A stretch of 13,723 bases of DNA from a bacterium (GTDB taxonomy: Bacteria; SZUA-182; DTGQ01; JAFGSM01): contig JBLIRP010000052.1 of the NCBI GenBank assembly GCA_049472355.1, positions 1-13,723 of the forward strand, in the 5' to 3' direction. Position numbers and translations under genes: made by a program. Shown here piece by piece: positions 1 to 13,220 of the stretch (positions within the stretch are counted from its first letter, which is position 1; every line of letters starts with the position of its first letter). A model generated the notes under the pieces. The model was not told the origin of the DNA, did no database searches, and worked only from the letters and a program-made list of their open reading frames with translations.

Positions 1-444
1 CTGATAGGGTTTCCCATTACCAACGTCCAGGTCACCCTGACGGACGGTGCGGCCCATGCGGTGGATTCCTCCGATATCGCCTTCCGGCAGGCGGCAATCG
101 GTGGTTTTCGCCAGGCGTACCAAAAGGCGAAGCCGATCATCCTGGAGCCCATCATGAAGGTCGTGGTGGAGGTGCCCACCGAGTTTCAGGGTGCGGTGAT
201 GGCCACCCTCAATCAACGGCGCGGGATAATTATCGGCACCACGGAGGAATCGAGCTTCTCCATCATTGAGGCCGAGGTCCCCCTGGCCGATATGTTCGGC
301 TACTCCACCGTGCTGAGGTCCGCAACCCAGGGCAAGGCCGAATTCACCATGGAGTTCTGCCGTTATAAACAGGTGCCTCAGAATATCGCGGAGCAGCTCA
401 AAAAGGAATATAGTGAGAAGATCGCCTCCCAGAAGGCAGCGTGA
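1..444 (+). CDS. fusA: Elongation factor G, C-terminal part (domains IV-V); 5' end lies outside the window
   Basis: Frame is open from base 1 (LIGFPITNVQVTLTDGAAHAVDSSDIAFRQAA). It contains the EF-G signatures H-x-VDSS, ILEPIMKVVVEVP and VPLADMFGYSTVLRSATQGKAEFTMEF. Stop TGA at 442-444. Confidence 0.97.
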   Translation: MIGFPITNVQVTLTDGAAHAVDSSDIAFRQAAIGGFRQAYQKAKPIILEPIMKVVVEVPTEFQGAVMATLNQRRGIIIGTTEESSFSIIEAEVPLADMFGYSTVLRSATQGKAEFTMEFCRYKQVPQNIAEQLKKEYSEKIASQKAA

Positions 445-517
445 CATGGAAATCCATAGGGGACCTCTGAAGACTCTGCGCAGAGGAACCATGCATAACA
501 AGAGAGGTGAACTGGCT

Positions 518-1243
518 ATGTGGCGCGATGCTATTTCCAAAAAAAATCCGATGAGGATCTTTGAAAAGGGCATTCATGGAGGATTGGGCAAGGGAAACCT
601 GGGGGCCATCATGGCGCGGGCCGGGGTGGGAAAGACGGCCTGCCTGATCCAGATATCCCTGGACAACCTTCTCAGAGGGCAGAATGTCCTTCATTTTTCT
701 GTGGGAAAGAGGGTGGACGAGGTACGGGACTGGTACAATGAGATGCTGGGGGACCTCACCCGGGCATGCAACCTGCTCCCCGCCGAGTCCATTCTGGGTG
801 AAATCGAACCCAGGCGGATTATCCAGAGCTATGCTGATCATATGTTCAGTGCGGACCGGATGGAGGCGGGGATCGCCCGACTGAAGGAGCACAGCGGATT
901 CGCGCCCGATGTGGTGCTCGTGGATGGCCATTTCTTCGAATCGCTCTCCAGATCGGATATCGAGCGGATCAAGGATCTCGCCCGGGCGCATGCCATGGAG
1001 GTCTGGTTTGCCGTACAGACCCACCGGGAGGGGGCGGTCGTCAATGATCGGGGGATCCCGGCCCCCTGCCATCTGGTTGACGATCTCCTGAGCGTCGTCG
1101 TGTTCCTCGAACCCTTTGGAGATTCCGTTCGGCTTCGCCTTATGAAGGATCACGATAATCCCAATGCGGAAGACCTTCACCTTCTCCTGGATCCCAACAC
1201 CCTGCTCATACGGGATGAAATCAGCCAGGAACGTATTGCATAG
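518..1243 (+). CDS. RecA/DnaB/KaiC-superfamily P-loop ATPase, single domain, 241 aa, function unknown
   Basis: ATG at 518 follows a GAGGTGA Shine-Dalgarno (504-510). GGLGKGNLGAIMARAGVGKT gives a RecA-like GG..G motif plus Walker A. Also GQNVLHFSV strand, Walker B VVLVDG, and VWFAVQTHR resembling the DnaB-family xSQxNR motif. Confidence 0.8.
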   Translation: MWRDAISKKNPMRIFEKGIHGGLGKGNLGAIMARAGVGKTACLIQISLDNLLRGQNVLHFSVGKRVDEVRDWYNEMLGDLTRACNLLPAESILGEIEPRRIIQSYADHMFSADRMEAGIARLKEHSGFAPDVVLVDGHFFESLSRSDIERIKDLARAHAMEVWFAVQTHREGAVVNDRGIPAPCHLVDDLLSVVVFLEPFGDSVRLRLMKDHDNPNAEDLHLLLDPNTLLIRDEISQERIA

Positions 1244-1444: not shown

Positions 1445-1461
1445 TGGGCATTTTTTTTGCA
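1445..1461 (+). promoter_or_regulatory. Putative sigma54 (RpoN) -24/-12 promoter upstream of the repeat-protein gene
   Basis: TGGGCATTTTTTTTGCA: GG (1447-1448), exactly 10 nt, GC (1459-1460), close to the TGGCAC-N5-TTGCW consensus, in AT-rich intergenic DNA. Confidence 0.55.
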
Positions 1462-1833: not shown

Positions 1834-2553
1834 ATGAAGAAAAAGGTTTCGAGTGCGTTAACATTTGTAGGTATCCTTTGTCTCGTAGTCATCCTTTCAA
1901 CCGCTTCGTCAAGCTTTGCCCAGTTCATGCCCCAGTACGGCGGCGGCTATGGCATGCCGCAGTACGGCGGCGGTTACGGTATGCCCCAGTACGGCGGCGG
2001 CTATGGCATGCCGCAGTACGGCGGCGGCTATGGCATGCCGCAGTACGGCGGCGGTTACGGTATGCCCCAGTACGGCGGCGGCTATGGTATGCCCCAGTAC
2101 GGCGGCGGGTACGGCATGCAGCCCTATGGCATGCAGGCCAGCTACGGCATGCAGGGTTACGGCATGCAGCCCTATGGCATGCAGGCCAGCTACGGCATGC
2201 CCCAGTACGGCGGCGGGTACGGCATGCAGCCCTATGGCATGCAGGCCAGCTACGGCATGCAGGGTTACGGCATGCAGCCCTATGGCATGCAGGGCTATGG
2301 CATGCAGCCCTACGGTATGCAGGCTGGCTACGGCATGCAGGGCTATGGTATGCAGCCGTACGGCATGCAGGCTGGCTACGGCATGCAGCAGGGATTCGGC
2401 GGAACCGGATACTATCCAACAAGCGGCGGTACGTCCGGACAGAGATTGCCGCGTCCGGGTCAAACCTATACCCTCTACGGACAGCAGGAGGGTGTGTATT
2501 ACGGCCAGGCCAATCCTCAAGAGTTGTTCGCACTCTTCGGAGGCGGCTACTAA
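1834..2553 (+). CDS. Secreted Gly/Tyr/Gln/Met-rich low-complexity tandem-repeat protein, 239 aa
   Basis: Sec-type signal peptide [31 protein letters not shown], then 152 aa of repeats and a short unique tail ending [10 protein letters not shown]. Differences among copies of the same repeat type are synonymous in this frame. A terminator follows. Confidence 0.88.
1927..2382 (+). repeat. Coding tandem repeat array: 8x MPQYGGGYG (27 bp), 6x MQPYG, 4x MQGYG, 3x MQASYG, 2x MQAGYG
   Basis: Seven consecutive 27-bp units ATGCCSCAGTACGGCGGCGGBTAYGGY at 1927-2115, an eighth at 2197-2223, and interspersed 15/18-bp units. Block 2089-2178 is repeated exactly at 2197-2286. Confidence 0.97.
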
Positions 2554-2578
2554 AACGATATCAACCTGAACCTACAAG

Positions 2579-2619
2579 GCTGCCGGATCTTATCATCACA
2601 GGGTCCGGCAGCTTTTTTT
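2579..2619 (+). terminator. Rho-independent terminator of the repeat-protein gene
   Basis: Stem GCTGCCGGATCT (2579-2590) pairs with GGGTCCGGCAGC (2601-2612), including two G-U pairs, 10-nt loop, then T7 (2613-2619), 25 nt after the stop codon. Confidence 0.88.
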
Positions 2620-2777: not shown

Positions 2778-3731
2778 TCAAAGACCGTGTCGGCCCTCTC
2801 CAGGAAGCGCATGGGGCGATGCATCCATGACCGCGAGGATTCCTTCCTCGATCAGTCGCGCGGCGGTTGAGAAAAAGGGGGCACACTCCTCAACGGATGA
2901 TGAGAGATTCTTCATGAGCACGACAAAGATTCCTGCAAGGAAGTGGTGCACCTTTACCGGGAAAAGAAGGCAACGCTCCATCATTTCTTCCGTGCGGGGC
3001 CCCGGTCTTTTCCTGTTCCTGCGGGTCTCCCAATAAATTTGATAGAGGCTTACAAAGGCGTCCTTCTCAGCGAACCGGGAGCAAAAATCCTCCTGGTCGA
3101 AAAAGCCGCTGACCAGGTCGGAAATCCGTAACGGAAGCATATCCGTGTATTGCCTCCTGACCCGACAGCAATCTTCCTCCAACAGCAGCAGGCCCACCGC
3201 CTCAAGATCGAGAAGCCTGCTGGTGAGAAGTGAGGATGTCCTCCTCCAGAGCATATCGGGGTCGGGGACCTGGCCGACAATAGCGCTCAACGCCTGGAGG
3301 GTATGGAGATAGATCGCCCTTTTCGCGAGCAGGTACTCGTACGTGGTGATCCTGTTCCGGAGCACCCTTTCCTGCAGTCCGATTTTCATCCAGTGGTCCT
3401 TGTGTTCCCTCTGGATGGTTTCAAGGCAAAACCGCTGCTTGTTGAGGAGCATCTGATCGAGTTCCATTTTCTGTACAAGGATTGAGATCTGATTCCCCAG
3501 CGAGGAGAAAAAACGTTGCAGCCGCGAGTTGGCCGAGATAATGGACAGCAGCACAGGGCATTTGAGGCAGCGGACCATCTCCTTGTAGGTGGAGGTGTTC
3601 CTTTTTGACTCGGGGGGAGCGTCGGTATCCGTCGTGTCCGCATGATAGATGCATAACTGGTTGCAGAAGGAACAAAGGGACGTATCGGTTATGGCGCGCG
3701 TGCGATTCTTCTGAAGATTGGTCACTCCCAT
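2778..3731 (-). CDS. Hypothetical protein, 317 aa: N-terminal Cys motifs, helical/coiled-coil linker, C-terminal GAF-like domain
   Basis: ATG at 3731 is preceded by a GGGGAGAACCT ribosome-binding site and a sigma54 box. Contains CSFCNQLC and CLKC. GAF-like patterns: LQALSAIVGQVPDPDMLWRRTSSLL..LEAVGLLLLEE, CLLFPVKVHHFLAGIFVV, FFSTAARLIEEGI. Confidence 0.7.
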   Translation of the reverse strand: MGVTNLQKNRTRAITDTSLCSFCNQLCIYHADTTDTDAPPESKRNTSTYKEMVRCLKCPVLLSIISANSRLQRFFSSLGNQISILVQKMELDQMLLNKQRFCLETIQREHKDHWMKIGLQERVLRNRITTYEYLLAKRAIYLHTLQALSAIVGQVPDPDMLWRRTSSLLTSRLLDLEAVGLLLLEEDCCRVRRQYTDMLPLRISDLVSGFFDQEDFCSRFAEKDAFVSLYQIYWETRRNRKRPGPRTEEMMERCLLFPVKVHHFLAGIFVVLMKNLSSSVEECAPFFSTAARLIEEGILAVMDASPHALPGEGRHGL

Positions 3732-3782
3732 AGGTTCTCCCCCCGGTTTTTTATGCAAAATAGGCTGTACACTTAACAAGAA

Positions 3783-3799
3783 AGCAACTGCTATGCCAA
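3783..3799 (-). promoter_or_regulatory. Sigma54 (RpoN) -24/-12 promoter of the GAF-like gene
   Basis: Minus strand reads TTGGCATAGCAGTTGCT, a near-consensus GG-N10-GC element about 50 bp upstream of the ATG at 3731. Confidence 0.75.
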
Positions 3800-4128
3800 T
3801 AGATGCCCTTTCCCATAGAAGGGATATGCAAGAGCATGGACACATTCTGGGTTTATCGTGTAACATTATGAAATTAAGAACATTTTTCCCTCGACGCCAA
3901 AGAGTGCAGAACAGAAAAAGGGCACTCCAAGGGGTGAAGATTCAAAAACAGCGGGGGAAGGGATGAGCATCCGGCGGTGGGGAAACGTTATGGGTAGCCG
4001 TCAAATATATTATATGATTCAATAGGTTCGCTGCTTCCTGCCGGCATTTTTCAGGCCAGGATCGTTGCAACCATGATGCATTATATTCATTCATTAATGC
4101 AATAGTTGCCTTTTTTTGTTATTTTACT

Positions 4129-7076: not shown

Positions 7077-8300
7077 TCAACTGATCAACTGGTTTATCTC
7101 AAAGATCGGCCACAGGATCGACATGACGATGAAACCGACCAGCACCCCCATGAAAAGGATAATGAGGGGCTCGAGTACCGAGGTGAGCCCGGCGATGGCC
7201 GACTCCACCTCGTTGGTATACGCCTCCGCGATCTTATGGAGCATCTCTTCCATCTGGCCGCTCTTTTCACCCACTGACACCATGTGAATAACAATGGGAG
7301 GGAAGATGCCCTCCCTCTTGAGGGGCGGGGCGATTTCCTCCCCCTCCTGAACGCTCTGTGCAACCCGATCGATTGCCCTGCCGATGACCTCGTTGTCCAC
7401 GATGTGGCGGACGATCCTGAGGGCCTCCAGGATGGGAAGGCCGCCGCTCAGGAGGGTCCCCATGGTCTGAGCGAAACGGGCGATTGCGAATTTTTTTTTG
7501 AGACTGCCGAATATGGGGACCTTCAGGCTCAAGGAATCCTTGACCAATCGTCCTGATTCGGTCTTGATGTAGCGGCGCAGGAGGAAGTAGAGGGCGATGA
7601 GCACCCCTGCAATGACCACCCAGAAATCCCGTATGAAGAAACTGGTGGATATAAGGATCTGGGTGGGCAGGGGAAGCTGCTGGCTCATCTCGCTGAAGAT
7701 GTTGGTGATGGTGGGGATCACGAATATCATCAAAAAGATGATGACCGCAATACCGATGATGCACATGAGAATGGGATAGGCGAGGCTTGCCCTGATCTTC
7801 CGCTGCTGCTGGATGCTTTGCTCCAGGAAGTCCGCGAGGCGCTCCAGTACGAGGTCCAGCGCGCCGCTCGCCTCTCCCGCCCTCACCATGTGGCAGTAAA
7901 GGTCGGAGAAGACCCGTGGATGTTCCGCCAGGGCATCGGAGAACGCGTTCCCCTCCTTTACCTTCTCCCGAATCTGGATGATGATCTTCTTGAGGGGCTC
8001 CGATTCCACCTGATCGATGAGCGCGGTCAGTGATTGGTCGAGGGGGAGCCCCGCCTTGAGGAGGGTGGCGAGCTGGCGGGTGATAAGTGCGATCTCGGCC
8101 TTCTTGATCCAGCGAAAAAAACCGATGGTGAGGAGTTGTTTTTCCGGAAGAAGCTGCTCGATTTCCGCGGTCTTCAACTCGAAGGCGAAGATCCCGTCAC
8201 GCCTGAGCTTGGTCCTTGCCTCCATGGAGGTCGAGGCATCGATGACCCCTCGAACCGTCTTTCCCTTCGTATCCAGTGCCTTGTATTCATAGACCGCCAT
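7077..8300 (-). CDS. gspF: Type II secretion inner-membrane platform protein GspF (GspF/PilC family)
   Basis: MAVYEYKALD start, TRQLATLLKAGLPL, MVRAGEASGALD..LERLAD, ASLAYP, MVSVGEKSG, LEPLII. 407 aa, directly downstream of gspE. Confidence 0.95.
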   Translation of the reverse strand: MAVYEYKALDTKGKTVRGVIDASTSMEARTKLRRDGIFAFELKTAEIEQLLPEKQLLTIGFFRWIKKAEIALITRQLATLLKAGLPLDQSLTALIDQVESEPLKKIIIQIREKVKEGNAFSDALAEHPRVFSDLYCHMVRAGEASGALDLVLERLADFLEQSIQQQRKIRASLAYPILMCIIGIAVIIFLMIFVIPTITNIFSEMSQQLPLPTQILISTSFFIRDFWVVIAGVLIALYFLLRRYIKTESGRLVKDSLSLKVPIFGSLKKKFAIARFAQTMGTLLSGGLPILEALRIVRHIVDNEVIGRAIDRVAQSVQEGEEIAPPLKREGIFPPIVIHMVSVGEKSGQMEEMLHKIAEAYTNEVESAIAGLTSVLEPLIILFMGVLVGFIVMSILWPIFEINQLIS

Positions 8301-8320
8301 GGTGTGTCCCGTATCCCGAT

Positions 8321-10027
8321 CTAAAACACATCTTCCTGGGTTACCCTGAGCACCTCCTGAATCGTGGAAAGCCCTGCCAGGACCTTGTGCGCCCCGTCCT
8401 GCCTGAGGGTGCTCATGCCGGATTCGATCCCCGTTCTTTTGATCACATTGGATTCCGCCTGCTGCATGGTCAGGCGCCTGATTGCGTCGTCCATCATGAG
8501 GAGCTCATAGATGCCGGTCCTTCCCCGGTATCCCGTGTTCATGCACTCGGGACAGCCCTTTTCCCGGTAGATTCCCCCTTCGGGTATGTCCGATGGCTTG
8601 CATCCGATCTCGGCCAGGGAATTCCGGTCGGGCCGGTACTGCTCCTTGCAGTGCGGACAGGCAACACGCACCAGCCTCTGGGCCAGGATGGCGATGACCG
8701 AGGATGCCACCAGGTAGGGCTCGACCCCCATGTCGATCAGCCTGGTGACGGCGCCTGCGGAATCGTTGGTATGGAGGGTGGAGAAGACCAGGTGTCCGGT
8801 CAGGGATGCCTGGATGGCAATCTCCGCGGTTTCCAGGTCCCTGATCTCGCCCACCATGATCACATCGGGGTCCTGCCTGAGGATGGATCGCAGGCCGTTG
8901 GAGAAGGTCAGGTTGATCTTGGGCATGACCTGGATCTGCCCGATGCCGTTCAACTGGTACTCGATGGGGTCCTCGATGGTGATGATGTTCTTGTCGGCGA
9001 AGTTTATCTTGCTCAGGGCCGCGTACAGCGTGGTGGTCTTCCCGCTTCCGGTGGGGCCCGTGACCAGGATGATGCCGTGGGAGCGATGGATGATGTCGTG
9101 CATCCGCTTGAGTGTATTGCCGCTCATCCCCAGTTCCTCGAGGCGGAGTATGGATCCGCGTTTGTCGAGCAGCCGCATCACCACCCGTTCGCCGAAGGCG
9201 GTGGGAATCGTCGATACCCGTATATCGATCTCCCGGTCCCCCACCCTGATCTTGATCCTCCCATCCTGGGGGAGCCGCTTTTCGGCGATGTTCATCTTTG
9301 ACATGATCTTGATACGGGAGATGATCGCCGTTTGATAACGCTTCGGCGGGGTGAGGGTGTCGTGGAGCACCCCGTCGATCCGGTACCTGACCCTGAGTTC
9401 CTGTTCAAAGGGCTCGATATGCACGTCGCTTGCCCGTTCCTTGATGGCCTGCACGAGTATCAGGTTGACCAGCTTGATGATGGGCGCCTCGTTCACCAGG
9501 TCCAGGAGGTCCTTGGGCTGCTCCCCCAGATCCGTGATAATTCCCACATCCTGCTTGTCCAGGTCCTGCACCATCTTCTCGGCGGTCTCCGGGGCATGGT
9601 GGTAGATCCGGTTGATGGCCTCGTTGATTTCCTCGATGGGACAGAGCACCGGCTCCACATGGCAGCCGGTGATGAGTCGTATATCATCCAGGGGCTGCAC
9701 ATTCACCGGGTTGCAGATGGCAACCCGGATGACCCCGTCCGTTCGGTTGATCGGAATGAGATGGTTTTTCTTGACGAAGTGAAAGGGTATCCCCTCGATG
9801 AGCGAGGGGTCCAGGTCCTGGGAGATGGCCTTCTGAAAGGGCATGTGGAAGTAGCCGCCCAGGCCCTTCAGTACCCTTTCCTCGGTGTCCCCCCCCATGG
9901 AGCACAGGGATTGAATCAGGTGCTCCTCCTTTTCCCGCTTCCTCGAACGGGCCTGGTCCAGCTCTTCCTGGGTGATGATGTGCTCGTTCAGGAGGATGCC
10001 CTCGATGTCTCTGATTGCAGGTTCCAT
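8321..10027 (-). CDS. gspE: Type II secretion ATPase GspE
   Basis: ASDVHIEP, AEKRLPQDG, Walker A GPTGSGKTT, TIEDPIEY, LRQDPDVIMVGEIRD, TGHLVFSTLHTN, Zn motif CPHC...CPEC. Confidence 0.97.
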   Translation of the reverse strand: MEPAIRDIEGILLNEHIITQEELDQARSRKREKEEHLIQSLCSMGGDTEERVLKGLGGYFHMPFQKAISQDLDPSLIEGIPFHFVKKNHLIPINRTDGVIRVAICNPVNVQPLDDIRLITGCHVEPVLCPIEEINEAINRIYHHAPETAEKMVQDLDKQDVGIITDLGEQPKDLLDLVNEAPIIKLVNLILVQAIKERASDVHIEPFEQELRVRYRIDGVLHDTLTPPKRYQTAIISRIKIMSKMNIAEKRLPQDGRIKIRVGDREIDIRVSTIPTAFGERVVMRLLDKRGSILRLEELGMSGNTLKRMHDIIHRSHGIILVTGPTGSGKTTTLYAALSKINFADKNIITIEDPIEYQLNGIGQIQVMPKINLTFSNGLRSILRQDPDVIMVGEIRDLETAEIAIQASLTGHLVFSTLHTNDSAGAVTRLIDMGVEPYLVASSVIAILAQRLVRVACPHCKEQYRPDRNSLAEIGCKPSDIPEGGIYREKGCPECMNTGYRGRTGIYELLMMDDAIRRLTMQQAESNVIKRTGIESGMSTLRQDGAHKVLAGLSTIQEVLRVTQEDVF

Positions 10028-10045
10028 AGACTACACGTTCCTTGT

Positions 10046-12271
10046 TTATTGACCTTCGGCAGGGGTCCCGGGGATGTGCTCCGACGGGGCGGGCTCGGGG
10101 GGCACTGCATCTGCGGATGCCTCGGGGGTTTGGATTGCAGCAGCGGCCTCGAGCTCCACGGTTTGCCCGGGCGTTTCCGTCGCTCCGGGCACACCTTCCG
10201 TCGACTCCTCGTCGACAAGAGATTGCTTGACGCCCGGTATATCGGCGGGGGGCGGTTCCCCTTCCTTGCCTGTGTTGATGTCGAGCTTCATCCTTTGCTT
10301 TTCCAGCGAGGCGCTCTTTTCATAGGTCAATGCCTGGAGCTCCTCCGGTGTTCGGATGATGTGCGGGGTCAGGAATACCTGGAGATTGGTCTTCTCCTTT
10401 CGCTTGGTTGACTTCCTGAACAACCATCCGAGCAGGGGGATCTCCCCCAGGCACGGCACCCGGTCGTAGGTTTCCGACTGGTCGTCCTTCAGGAGCCCTC
10501 CGATGACCACGGTCTGGCGGTCCTTGACTACCACGGTGGTGTCCGCCTCCCTCTTGGTGGTCCAGGGGGGGCCGCCCAGGTCCGTGGTCCGCGGGATCAC
10601 GTTGTCGATCTTGAGCGAAATCTCCAGCTTTACATACCCATCGGGGTTTATGTAGGGGGTGATCTTGAGGGTGAGGCCCACGTCCTTGTAAATAAACGAC
10701 TGCCTGGTCACGTTGTCGACGATATCGCTCTGGGGATAGCTGATGGACTGCCCTATAAGAATTTTCGCCTCCTCATTGTCGGTTGTCAAGAGATGTGGCG
10801 TGGAGAGGATATTGACGTCCTGGTCCCCCTGGTATGCCCGGATCAGCGCCGCGATGTTCGGGAATTCCAGGCTGCCCACCTTGATGGAATCCTTCGCCAC
10901 CCCCATGAATATCCCCTGGGGCAGGTCCCCCGATATAATGCCGGATTGGACCGAGGATATCTCGCCGAAGTTGGTCCCCCCGAACCCCTGGTAGTCGCTT
11001 CCCCCGTCATCCGTGCGGATCTTCTCCACACCTGCACGCCATTCCACCCCCAGTTCCTGATTCTTCCCGAAGGTCACCTCGGCGATGAGCGCCTCCACCA
11101 GCACCTGGGGACGCATCACGTCCAGTTCGTCAATGATCCTGGAAAGGATCTCGTATTCCTGGGGGGAGGCGGTGATGATCAGGGAATTGGTCGCCTTGTC
11201 CGCAGTGATCTGTGAGCCCACGATCGCCGCCGCCACCTCCTGGCCCCCCTTGACCGTCTGGGACCGCTGCTGGCTGATGATGGAGCTCAGCACCTTTGCC
11301 ACCTCCTCGGCCTTGGAGTTCTTGAGCGCCCGGACCCGGATGTTGTCCTTTCCCCGGGGGGCGGGGATATCCAGCCGGTTGATCAGGTCCATGATGGTCT
11401 CCATGTCATCCTCCTGGGCCAGGATGATGAGGGAGCCCGTCCTGTCGTCGGGGATGATCTTTGACTGCACCGCATCCTTCGGAATGACCGCCTTGCGCTG
11501 CCGGGTCCGCTGCACCTTCTGGTCCCCGACCACCTTCATGACCTCTGCGGCGATCGTATCGGGTGACGCGTACTTGAGCGGTACGATCTCGATCCGGACC
11601 TCCGCCGTGGGAATATCGATTTCATGGATGATCTTGACCAGCCTGTCGATATTGGAGAGGGTCTCGGTGAGGATGATCGTGTTGGTGGGCCCGTAGGCGA
11701 TCAGCTTGCTCTCCTTGGACACCAGCATGGAGATCACGTTTTTTACCTCGTTCACATCCGCATGGTTGATGGGGATGAGCTGGGTGATGAAGCTGTCCTC
11801 CGGTCGTGTCCGGAGGGTATGCTCCCTGGTCCGTGTTTCGATGTTCTTGCTGAAGGCATCCCGCACCGGTACGATCTTTACGACGGAGCCCGAGGGTATG
11901 GCGGCGAACCCCTTGACCTCCAGGATGGATTCGAACACCTGATATGCCTCGTCAACGGGTACGGCCTGGGGTGAGATGATGGTCACGTTCCCCTTGACCG
12001 AATCATCGACCAGGAAATTTTTTCCCAGCAGGTCGCTCATGAACTTGATCACCAGCCGGATGTCCACGTTGTTGAAATCGAGGGTGACGTTCTTGGCAGG
12101 TTCCTTTGTGCCGCGTGCATCGGCCTTGCCTCGTTCGTTCAATGCAAGCAGGATGGGCCCCGGCGGCTCCGCCGGGCACCGGGCGACCATGCCCAGCAAC
12201 AATGCAATGCCCAGACCGCCGATGATGAAAATCATGCCGAGCGGTCTTTTTGTCTTCGATGATAGATACAT
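10046..12271 (-). CDS. gspD: Type II secretion secretin GspD
   Basis: N-terminal hydrophobic signal, N0 domain VTLDFNNVDIRLVIKFMSDLLGKNFLVD, repeated N domains, secretin core QVLVEALIAEV, NILSTPHLLTTDNEEAKILIG, VPCLGEIPLLGWLF, KTNLQVFLTPHII. Confidence 0.96.
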   Translation of the reverse strand: MYLSSKTKRPLGMIFIIGGLGIALLLGMVARCPAEPPGPILLALNERGKADARGTKEPAKNVTLDFNNVDIRLVIKFMSDLLGKNFLVDDSVKGNVTIISPQAVPVDEAYQVFESILEVKGFAAIPSGSVVKIVPVRDAFSKNIETRTREHTLRTRPEDSFITQLIPINHADVNEVKNVISMLVSKESKLIAYGPTNTIILTETLSNIDRLVKIIHEIDIPTAEVRIEIVPLKYASPDTIAAEVMKVVGDQKVQRTRQRKAVIPKDAVQSKIIPDDRTGSLIILAQEDDMETIMDLINRLDIPAPRGKDNIRVRALKNSKAEEVAKVLSSIISQQRSQTVKGGQEVAAAIVGSQITADKATNSLIITASPQEYEILSRIIDELDVMRPQVLVEALIAEVTFGKNQELGVEWRAGVEKIRTDDGGSDYQGFGGTNFGEISSVQSGIISGDLPQGIFMGVAKDSIKVGSLEFPNIAALIRAYQGDQDVNILSTPHLLTTDNEEAKILIGQSISYPQSDIVDNVTRQSFIYKDVGLTLKITPYINPDGYVKLEISLKIDNVIPRTTDLGGPPWTTKREADTTVVVKDRQTVVIGGLLKDDQSETYDRVPCLGEIPLLGWLFRKSTKRKEKTNLQVFLTPHIIRTPEELQALTYEKSASLEKQRMKLDINTGKEGEPPPADIPGVKQSLVDEESTEGVPGATETPGQTVELEAAAAIQTPEASADAVPPEPAPSEHIPGTPAEGQ

Positions 12272-12299
12272 ACGTTCCTTTCCTTATATCCCTGGTGCG

Positions 12300-13220
12300 C
12301 TACTCATTGATATCGTATTGCAGGGTAACCTCCTTGTTGTTCCTGAGCACGACCACCTCGATGCGCGATTCGTTCCTGAGCTTCTGATATGCCTCGAACG
12401 CCTTTTCCGCATTGTCCACCGGGATCTGGTTGACCGACCTGATCACATCTCCGTTCCTCAGGCCCATGGTGTCAAAAAAGCTCCGGGGCCTGATATTCGC
12501 CACCTGGAATCCGTCAGGCTGGTCGATCTTTCCTTTAGTAAAGTGCGGGATGATCCTCACCTGGGTGAGGAGCTGGCTGGAATTCTCGAGCACGTTCTGC
12601 ACCTCATCCCGCTCCATCACCCAGTGGTTCTGTCCGATCTTCTTCCCGATACGTCCAGGAATCGCGGTCTCCCCAGGACTCTCCTGAGCGCCCGGTTCCG
12701 TGGACTGATCCAGGGCCGCGCTGATCAAGGCCTCCATATCCTCGAAGGCGATGAGCATTTCCTCCTTGCCCTCGTGCTCCAGGATAACCTTGTGGCGATA
12801 GATCTTGACCAGCTTTGCGGGACCGATCTCGTCCCCTTCGGTGAACAGGTCCTGTTTTCTGGTGGTTTCGTCAAGGATGATGGCAAACGGCACGATCCCA
12901 TATCCGGTCATCGTCCCCAGCAGTTTAAGTCTCAATGCGGTAAGGGGCGCAACCTTCTCCTCTTCCTCTTCACTCCTCTGCGGTCCCTCCTTGCTGGGCT
13001 CCACCTGGAGGAGGTCCCGCTGGGTAATGATCTGGTAGTACCCCTTACGGTTTCTGCTTTTCGGGCTCTCATGCTCTTCGGGCCGAACAGTGAAGGGGGT
13101 GGTGGGCGGAACGTCGAGAATGGTCTTGAGACGGACGGTGACGGCGTCTGCGGCAAGGTATGCCGAGATGGTCGCCAACAGAAGGATGACGATCCAGAAG
13201 ACCTTCTTAACCATACCCAC
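12300..13220 (-). CDS. gspC: Type II secretion protein GspC (TM + HR + PDZ)
   Basis: N-terminal TM helix, HR-like LKLLGT..FAII..QDLFTEGDEI, C-terminal PDZ (GFQVANIRPRSFFDTMGLRNGDVIRSVNQ). First gene upstream of gspD. Start is GTG 13220 or ATG 13214. Confidence 0.9.
   Translation of the reverse strand: MGMVKKVFWIVILLLATISAYLAADAVTVRLKTILDVPPTTPFTVRPEEHESPKSRNRKGYYQIITQRDLLQVEPSKEGPQRSEEEEEKVAPLTALRLKLLGTMTGYGIVPFAIILDETTRKQDLFTEGDEIGPAKLVKIYRHKVILEHEGKEEMLIAFEDMEALISAALDQSTEPGAQESPGETAIPGRIGKKIGQNHWVMERDEVQNVLENSSQLLTQVRIIPHFTKGKIDQPDGFQVANIRPRSFFDTMGLRNGDVIRSVNQIPVDNAEKAFEAYQKLRNESRIEVVVLRNNKEVTLQYDINE

Follow-up and report, generated by a model that had tools for sequence, protein, structure and literature searches.

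The stretch of DNA analysed here, 13,723 nucleotides that are called the window below, contains at positions 1834-2553 of the forward strand an open reading frame (ORF) for 239 amino acids, most of which are short repeats of Met, Gln, Pro, Gly and Tyr behind a putative signal peptide. The locus raises the question of whether the repeat is a genuine protein and, if so, what such a chain would do after export. The earlier note on this DNA had inferred an exported, self-associating structural protein, a proposal that gains support from the dozens of similar proteins which we found encoded in the same genome. We favor, with a probability of about 0.55, the reading that the target protein is a scaffold chain of an exported matrix or coat held together non-covalently by aromatic stickers, in which tracts of this kind would tether cargo by their composition. 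The features of the window to which the argument refers are as follows.

413-1243, forward strand: AAA_25-type ATPase gene, a conserved neighbor (Pfam AAA_25, E = 1e-7)
1447-1461, forward strand: sigma-54-type -24/-12 motif GG-N10-GC, a candidate promoter (conserved block in 5/5 aligned upstream regions)
1834-1920, forward strand: predicted Sec-type signal peptide, residues 1-29, predicted cut SFA/QF (anatomy, orthologue alignment, pN < pS)
1927-2382, forward strand: 23 uncharged units from Met to Tyr-Gly, residues 32-183 (unit parse, Tandem Repeats Finder, shuffles)
2383-2550, forward strand: non-repetitive tail, residues 184-239, whose core is conserved from Pro206 onward (alignments, tail profile, pN/pS)
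2576-2615, forward strand: intrinsic terminator-like hairpin and T run (16-pair stem, 22 nucleotides past the stop codon)
7077-13220, reverse strand: gspC, gspD, gspE and gspF type II secretion genes (Pfam T2SSC, Secretin, T2SSE and T2SSF)

The repeat protein and its orthologues

Residues 32-183 parse into 23 contiguous units that start with Met and end with Tyr-Gly, with nothing left over: MPQYGGGYG eight times, MQPYG six times, MQGYG four times, MQASYG three times and MQAGYG twice. The earlier counts of 152 residues, 31 Tyr and 23 Met proved exact; the remaining residues are 53 Gly, 23 Gln, 14 Pro, 5 Ala and 3 Ser, without any Asp, Glu, Lys, Arg or His. The description of the protein as charge-free is thus right for the repeat but not for the mature chain (22.3 kDa), in which the tail supplies the only Arg (2) and Glu (2). 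Tyr recurs every 4-6 residues and Met every 5-9, with no His or Cys in the repeat, and Pro plus Gly comes to 44%. There are 23 YGM junctions, whereas 10,000 shuffles gave 1.6 on average and never more than 8, and Tandem Repeats Finder reported a 27-bp array together with 15-, 48- and 108-bp arrays at 1926-2389. When units of equal length were compared, third codon positions accounted for 8 of the 11 variable columns, which indicates that the target frame is the correct one and that the overlapping ORFs in other frames are shadows.

Signal peptides, here and genome-wide, were judged by their anatomy and by a home-made heuristic. That of the target has 3 Lys, a hydrophobic core with a mean KD of 2.87 and an S-x-A at -3/-1; it is kept across the six aligned orthologues, so that the earlier assignment of a Sec signal stands on both anatomy and conservation. 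No family had been recognised in the earlier note, and our searches agree: the target gave no Pfam match at E ≤ 0.1 (curlin repeats included), no NCBIfam match and no Rfam match above threshold, which by sequence comparison places the protein outside every family tested. The Atlas structure model is of low confidence (pLDDT 0.46) and compatible with disorder only, and Atlas matches scoring below 0.8 serve as leads only.

A homologue search with the whole protein returned three matches, one of them a true orthologue. When the tail was searched by itself as a profile, one copy each was found in 5 of the 20 genomes of the class, all within the target's own family of six genomes; the sole family genome without a match is 63% complete. 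pN was lower than pS in 8/8 comparisons for the signal peptide plus tail and in 4/4 for the signal peptide alone, with pN of 0.05-0.31 and pS of 0.47-0.84 in the tail. The target gene is therefore real and conserved, with single-copy syntenic orthologues under purifying selection, and the possibility of a shadow ORF or a slippage artefact was rejected on the unit parse, the single-copy orthologues and the selection on codons. The repeats of the orthologues vary from 87 to 201 residues and use differing units, with the same composition and at most one charge. Preservation of signal peptide, tail and composition, while repeat sequence and length are free, suggests that selection acts on a physical property of the chain.

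Transcription and neighboring genes

The GG-N10-GC block at 1447-1461 fits the sigma-54 consensus, and the source genome (G000) encodes RpoN together with 26 sigma-54 activator domains. If this candidate promoter is used, it implies a 5' leader of about 360 nucleotides. Within the leader (1600-1833), three short purine-rich blocks near 1617, 1748-1762 and 1820-1829 are present in 5/5 genomes, and they have no Rfam match. Downstream, one terminator-like site was found against 1.8 expected in shuffles, so that it is the placement of the hairpin, not its count, that serves as evidence. The target gene is probably monocistronic, as judged from these flanking signals. RNA-library contigs contain the gene in 4/4 runs examined (two studies), and in two of these the pieces are exact, although these contigs span other parts of the window too, may include DNA and are unsuited to ranking genes; transcription of the gene is likely.

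Whether sigma-54 governs the wider set of Gly/Tyr-tract genes described below is a lead only. Sites of this type lie upstream of 9/54 Gly/Tyr genes and 14/313 other exported genes, with a pattern partly picked after the target's own site. After intergenic length was controlled, the excess over other exported genes was marginal (p = 0.05-0.15), and in relatives the counts were 6/33 versus 3/58 (p = 0.054). A family-wide sigma-54 regulon was not accepted on these counts. The upstream motifs shared by the family genes are mainly Shine-Dalgarno words.

The ATPase gene precedes the orthologue at the same position in G001, G002, G004 and G005 (4/4 orthologue loci), and it is probably not a functional partner of the target. 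The gspC-D-E-F cluster is a possible candidate for the route by which the target would leave through the outer membrane; it is followed by DUF502 and FAD-linked oxidase genes, and pseudopilin genes were not seen in the window. A convergent ORF at 2778-3866 (reverse strand, 362 amino acids) has no Pfam or NCBIfam match, and look-alikes, as judged by eye, flank the orthologues in G001, G002 and G005. An endonuclease III gene adjoins the orthologue in G002, G004 and G005 and is absent beside the target.

Related tracts in the genome, order and class

A Gly/Tyr tract filter run on the 21,582 six-frame ORFs of G000 (a genome 87.5% complete) retained 59 ORFs, of which 52 fall within the heuristic signal-peptide set of 469 among 3,133 genes. 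The genome thus holds many proteins that combine a predicted signal with YG tracts, which answers the question of their number raised earlier. Of the 59, 22 consist of a tract alone behind the signal, 10 have a barrel domain at the end, 23 combine the tract with other domains (one of these being a probable false positive), and for 4 the ORF shows no signal. The 22 tract-only proteins contain just 2 Lys and 2 Cys among 3,818 mature residues. Mature N-termini begin with Tyr-Tyr in 24 of the 45 proteins parsed, and others begin with Gln plus an aromatic residue. Terminator-like hairpins follow 16/59 Gly/Tyr genes as compared to 13/400 random genes. Across the 59 proteins Leu stands before YG 273 times and Met 150 times, the two alternating at the same positions. 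The motif GLYGGYG occurs 16 times in 5/59 proteins and in none of 3,074 other genes; the target is without it.

When the filter was relaxed to uncharged aromatic tracts in general, 142 of the 469 exported-type proteins (about 30%) were positive versus 27 of 2,200 cytosolic-type proteins. The tract-bearing proteins, about 150 in all, account for 6% of coding residues. The periodic YG pattern was found in 13/13 genomes of the order (1-134 matches) and exceeded the backwards control in 11; in the other two it did not (G007, 9 vs. 13; G010, 1 vs. 4). Outside the order it was found in 3/7 other genomes of the class (2-4 matches) and in 2/41 outside genomes (one match each). The Met-type unit is confined to 5 of 121 genomes, all inside the order.

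A ~50-residue conserved module was observed behind the Gly/Tyr tracts of five proteins of G000 (C122:38-928, C106:13074-13550, C58:36590-37084, C38:4753-5328 and C91:8579-9076); it is present in G009 and G011 as well. A relative, Zod_Metabat.896, is listed under a novel class and order of the phylum SZUA-182 and came from a sulfidic spring (PMC9040765). At its barrel-domain loci, the gene neighbors in common with G000 are 49-81% identical, with one weaker match of 36%. We accordingly assign G000, the genome of an uncultured sediment bacterium, to this lineage and most likely to SZUA-182. The literature searched, mostly open-access texts, gave no description of these tract proteins, nor any experiment, image or proteome of the lineage.

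Domains joined to the tracts

The tracts are carried by subtilases, two alpha-2-macroglobulins, Kazal repeats, a polysaccharide deacetylase, a cohesin and others, as read in 42 and then 14 selected proteins of G000, a subset of the tract set. Six of ten subtilases have a tract of at least 40 residues. Chagasins are encoded in 13/13 genomes of the order and in 0/7 other genomes of the class, and 23 of the 30 loci fetched (from 37 matches across the order) have a tract. The tag is not universal, since seven of these chagasins and the other four subtilases are tract-free. On the same chagasin domain the tract repeats differ freely, being Gly/Tyr, Ser/Pro/Trp/Gln, Pro/Tyr/Met/Gln or Gln/Tyr/Asn/Pro. 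In the alpha-2-macroglobulins (G000 C120:12731-18517, L074, and C119:11444-15742, L083), the Pfam A2M domain is directly preceded by an aromatic or Gly/Tyr tract, at a spot which we take to be the position of the bait region; these tracts are possibly decoys that mimic matrix chains.

Two folded families accompany the tracts. The first is a domain of about 118 residues predicted as an eight-stranded antiparallel barrel (pLDDT 90.9). All 16 copies in G000 stand behind an aromatic tract (for example C71:7563-8507, L023); there are 3-41 copies per genome in 13/13 genomes of the order and none in the 7 other genomes of the class. Fold searches matched streptavidin (Foldseek, E = 5e-4, TM 0.67) and zebavidin (Z 12.7, rmsd 2.3, 102 residues aligned), with avidin-type and OmpA-type barrels tied. 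Identity in the fold alignments was 13-24%, and there was no Pfam avidin match and no PDB sequence match at E < 0.1. Because most strands of the model have one hydrophobic and one polar face, we read the predicted domain as a soluble barrel.

The second family, designated PPYN, is a Pro/Leu/aromatic domain of about 155 residues with a confident model (pLDDT 89.9). It gave 10-67 matches per genome in 13/13 genomes of the order, none in the 7 other genomes of the class and none in 11 outside genomes. The fold search returned a best Z of 3.0 and no Foldseek match at E ≤ 0.001, a result that does not by itself prove a novel fold, and the best 120 of 622 homologues were all unnamed or hypothetical. 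PPYN proteins are of exported type and about 190 amino acids long; the 35 matches in G000 include tandem arrays at C82:3676-10787 (L090) and also on C27, C52 and C116. The family is possibly the main subunit of the lattice. As the genomes of the order are kin, a pattern of 13/13 versus 0/7 counts as one evolutionary event and not as 13.

A proposed non-covalent matrix with composition as the tag

The sulfur globule precedent discussed below and the order-wide system of tracts fused to enzymes and inhibitors are both points that the earlier note had missed. Free sequence with kept composition, exclusion of charge, even spacing of aromatic residues and reuse on unrelated cargo together argue for a multivalent physical interaction and not for a folded site. 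The target would be a scaffold-type subunit of a coat, sheath or matrix made by one order of SZUA-182. Its gene would be transcribed alone, probably from the sigma-54 promoter, and its product, once exported through Sec, would be set free in the periplasm or outside the cell as a chain that is uncharged and disordered. Evenly placed Tyr stickers, with Met, would bind like chains non-covalently between Gly/Gln/Pro spacers and give a condensate or gel, and the short conserved tail may make a specific contact with a partner. Tracts on proteases, inhibitors and other exported domains would be a tag, coded by composition, through which these proteins are recruited to the material. That three inhibitor classes share this tag with proteases of the cell itself fits a protein material that needs both defence and remodelling, and the tagged proteins would serve these two ends. 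No exporter dedicated to the tract proteins came to light.

Prion-like domains of the FUS/Sup35 type have uncharged G/S/Q/N/P spacers and evenly placed Tyr, and conserve composition over sequence. These are cytoplasmic or nuclear domains of eukaryotes, whereas the tracts of G000 follow bacterial signal peptides. Squid suckerins, in their M2 modules, are like the G000 family in being multi-gene Gly/Tyr/Leu tracts (GGY, GGL, GLYGGYG); as described in PMC9999432, such modules assemble by themselves with no covalent linkage, and in water the peptide GLYGGYGV forms a gel. Unlike suckerins, the present family is bacterial and would be convergent, it lacks the Ala/Thr/His beta-sheet M1 blocks, and the target has Met/Gln/Pro in place of Leu and no GGLY motif. 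In the anammox bacterium Ca. Brocadia sinica, the matrix or S-layer protein Brosi_A1236 is likewise a bacterial extracellular protein with phase-separating disordered parts, and these are stated to adhere and gel as well (PMC7482068). Brosi_A1236 is a single large protein, Ig-like and with two disordered domains, while here the tract-bearing proteins number about 150. By analogy, suckerins and the anammox protein offer a physical precedent for the assembly proposed here.

A bolder version, which we put forward tentatively and would not expect to hold in full, is that of a programmable extracellular condensate in which prion-like tracts on about 150 exported proteins form a sequence-free sorting code. 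The phase itself would consist of tract-only chains and would be organised by the two new folded families; its tagged cargo would comprise proteases, protease inhibitors of three classes and a few multiheme cytochromes. Bacteria attach cargo to their surfaces through defined domains or motifs such as dockerins, SLH domains and sortase signals. Should interchangeable prion-like tracts indeed be present on about 30% of exported-type proteins, the principle of organisation would differ from these, and the bacterial material would correspond to the apical matrices of animals while being ordered by phase behavior and not by docking domains. The idea lends itself to immediate tests on small recombinant proteins. 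Taken alone, the target gene would be a mere curiosity; the system would provide the first biological trait for phylum SZUA-182, which is otherwise only listed or mentioned in passing in the literature found, as far as the accessible texts go. Protein engineering would gain two new folded families from it, and natural suckerin-like sequences by the dozen. One further idea, a protein wall that replaces peptidoglycan, was rejected because mraY is present in 19/20 genomes of the class.

Comparison with sulfur globule proteins and other readings

Sulfur globule proteins (Sgp) are Gly/Tyr-rich, and the target may work as they do, as a periplasmic coat on stored sulfur, polysulfide or another hydrophobic inclusion. 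We regard this as unlikely. SgpA, SgpB and SgpC of Allochromatium vinosum are Sec-exported, repetitive and hydrophobic, have been compared with keratins and with proteins of plant walls and form their own transcription units (PMC10386293, accessible text), a ground plan in common with the target, which has a Sec-type signal by anatomy and heuristic and a repetitive, uncharged, Gly- and aromatic-rich chain. The relative from the sulfidic spring, moreover, is credited with asr/hdr genes in the accessible part of PMC9040765. Against this, globule formers have 1-6 sgp genes for proteins of 11-13 kDa (PMC10386293), while here there are dozens of paralogues, the target is twice that size at 22 kDa, and many tract proteins of G000 are fused to proteases and inhibitors. 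The Pfam SGP model (PF17228) gave 0/21 genomes over its cut-off, in a search without a positive control. The model also missed P0003, an unrelated 172-residue exported Gly/Tyr/Met/Pro repeat protein which we assume to be Sgp-like from its appearance. The rDsr/Sox/Fcc type of host metabolism was not found either: dsrA was over the cut-off in 0/20 genomes, FccB and SoxY domains were not found in G000 (87.5% complete; controls positive in Thermus), and neither was NrfD. Among the 7 strongest Pyr_redox_2 matches in the host, none was named SQR by NCBIfam, the model being general and not SQR-specific. Sulfur globule proteins are thus the nearest bacterial precedent by analogy, as far as the accessible parts of PMC10386293 and PMC10609205 describe them, and the target differs from them in family match, size, gene number and host metabolism.

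An ordered material appears quite improbable. The target would here be the subunit of a cross-beta fibre, a rigid sheath or the coat of a dormant cyst, possibly cross-linked through Tyr. Repeats of Q/G/Y/P resemble those of Sup35 and PrP, the target repeat offers 31 Tyr, and conditional sigma-54 control (candidate promoter, 26 activator domains) would suit a developmental programme. However, high Pro plus Gly, 44% in the target, disfavors cross-beta structure, and neither repeat length nor register is conserved among the orthologues. Curli (CsgA with CsgG/CsgF) and Fap resemble the proposed role of the target, being Sec-exported repeat proteins that form extracellular material, and CsgF itself phase-separates according to the accessible text of PMC10133297. 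The target was rightly set apart from curli in the earlier note: CsgG gave only partial matches in G000 (fewer than 60 of 210 positions, inside 719- and 739-residue frames), the repeats are irregular and Pro/Gly-rich, and no biogenesis operon lies beside the gene. Neighbors of the fapABCDEF type are also lacking within the window. Enzymatic dityrosine cross-linking of the resilin or chorion type, which had been suggested too, found no support, since multicopper oxidase and cytochrome c peroxidase (CCP/MauG) were not found in G000 with positive controls; a tyrosinase search gave no match, its positive control being silent as well. Lys and Cys, which other cross-links could use, are nearly absent from the family.

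We think it very doubtful that the tracts do not co-assemble and that each instead works alone at the surface, whether it adheres to minerals or partner cells, serves as a flexible spacer or is sacrificed to proteases as a decoy. The position of the tract in both alpha-2-macroglobulins is in favor of a decoy, and a short Vibrio biofilm peptide adheres by itself, as described in the accessible text of PMC13733808. Yet 22 tract-only proteins and a uniform exclusion of charge fit spacers poorly. Multivalent, uncharged aromatic chains would in general be expected to self-associate.

A role of the target's Met in binding Cu(I)/Ag(I) or as an oxidant sink, raised in the earlier note, is highly improbable and found no support: Met does open 23/23 units and forms 16-24% of the repeat in 4/4 orthologues, but its spacing of 5-9 residues without His or Cys, the interchange of Leu and Met before YG across the family and the absence of a multicopper oxidase from the genome search all speak against it.

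A dedicated conductive matrix was also rejected, as multiheme cytochromes occur class-wide and only two exported ones bear a tract. They lie near tract genes less frequently (5/34) than do other exported genes (76/296). Paired-CXXCH domains are abundant in 20/20 genomes of the class, which suggests extracellular electron transfer across the class. G000 itself encodes 34 proteins with at least three CxxCH motifs and up to 60, among them giant cytochromes at C92:11987-21760, C67:29575-42546, C136:3232-11849 and on C80, with motif counts of 60, 49, 28, 26, 25 and 24.
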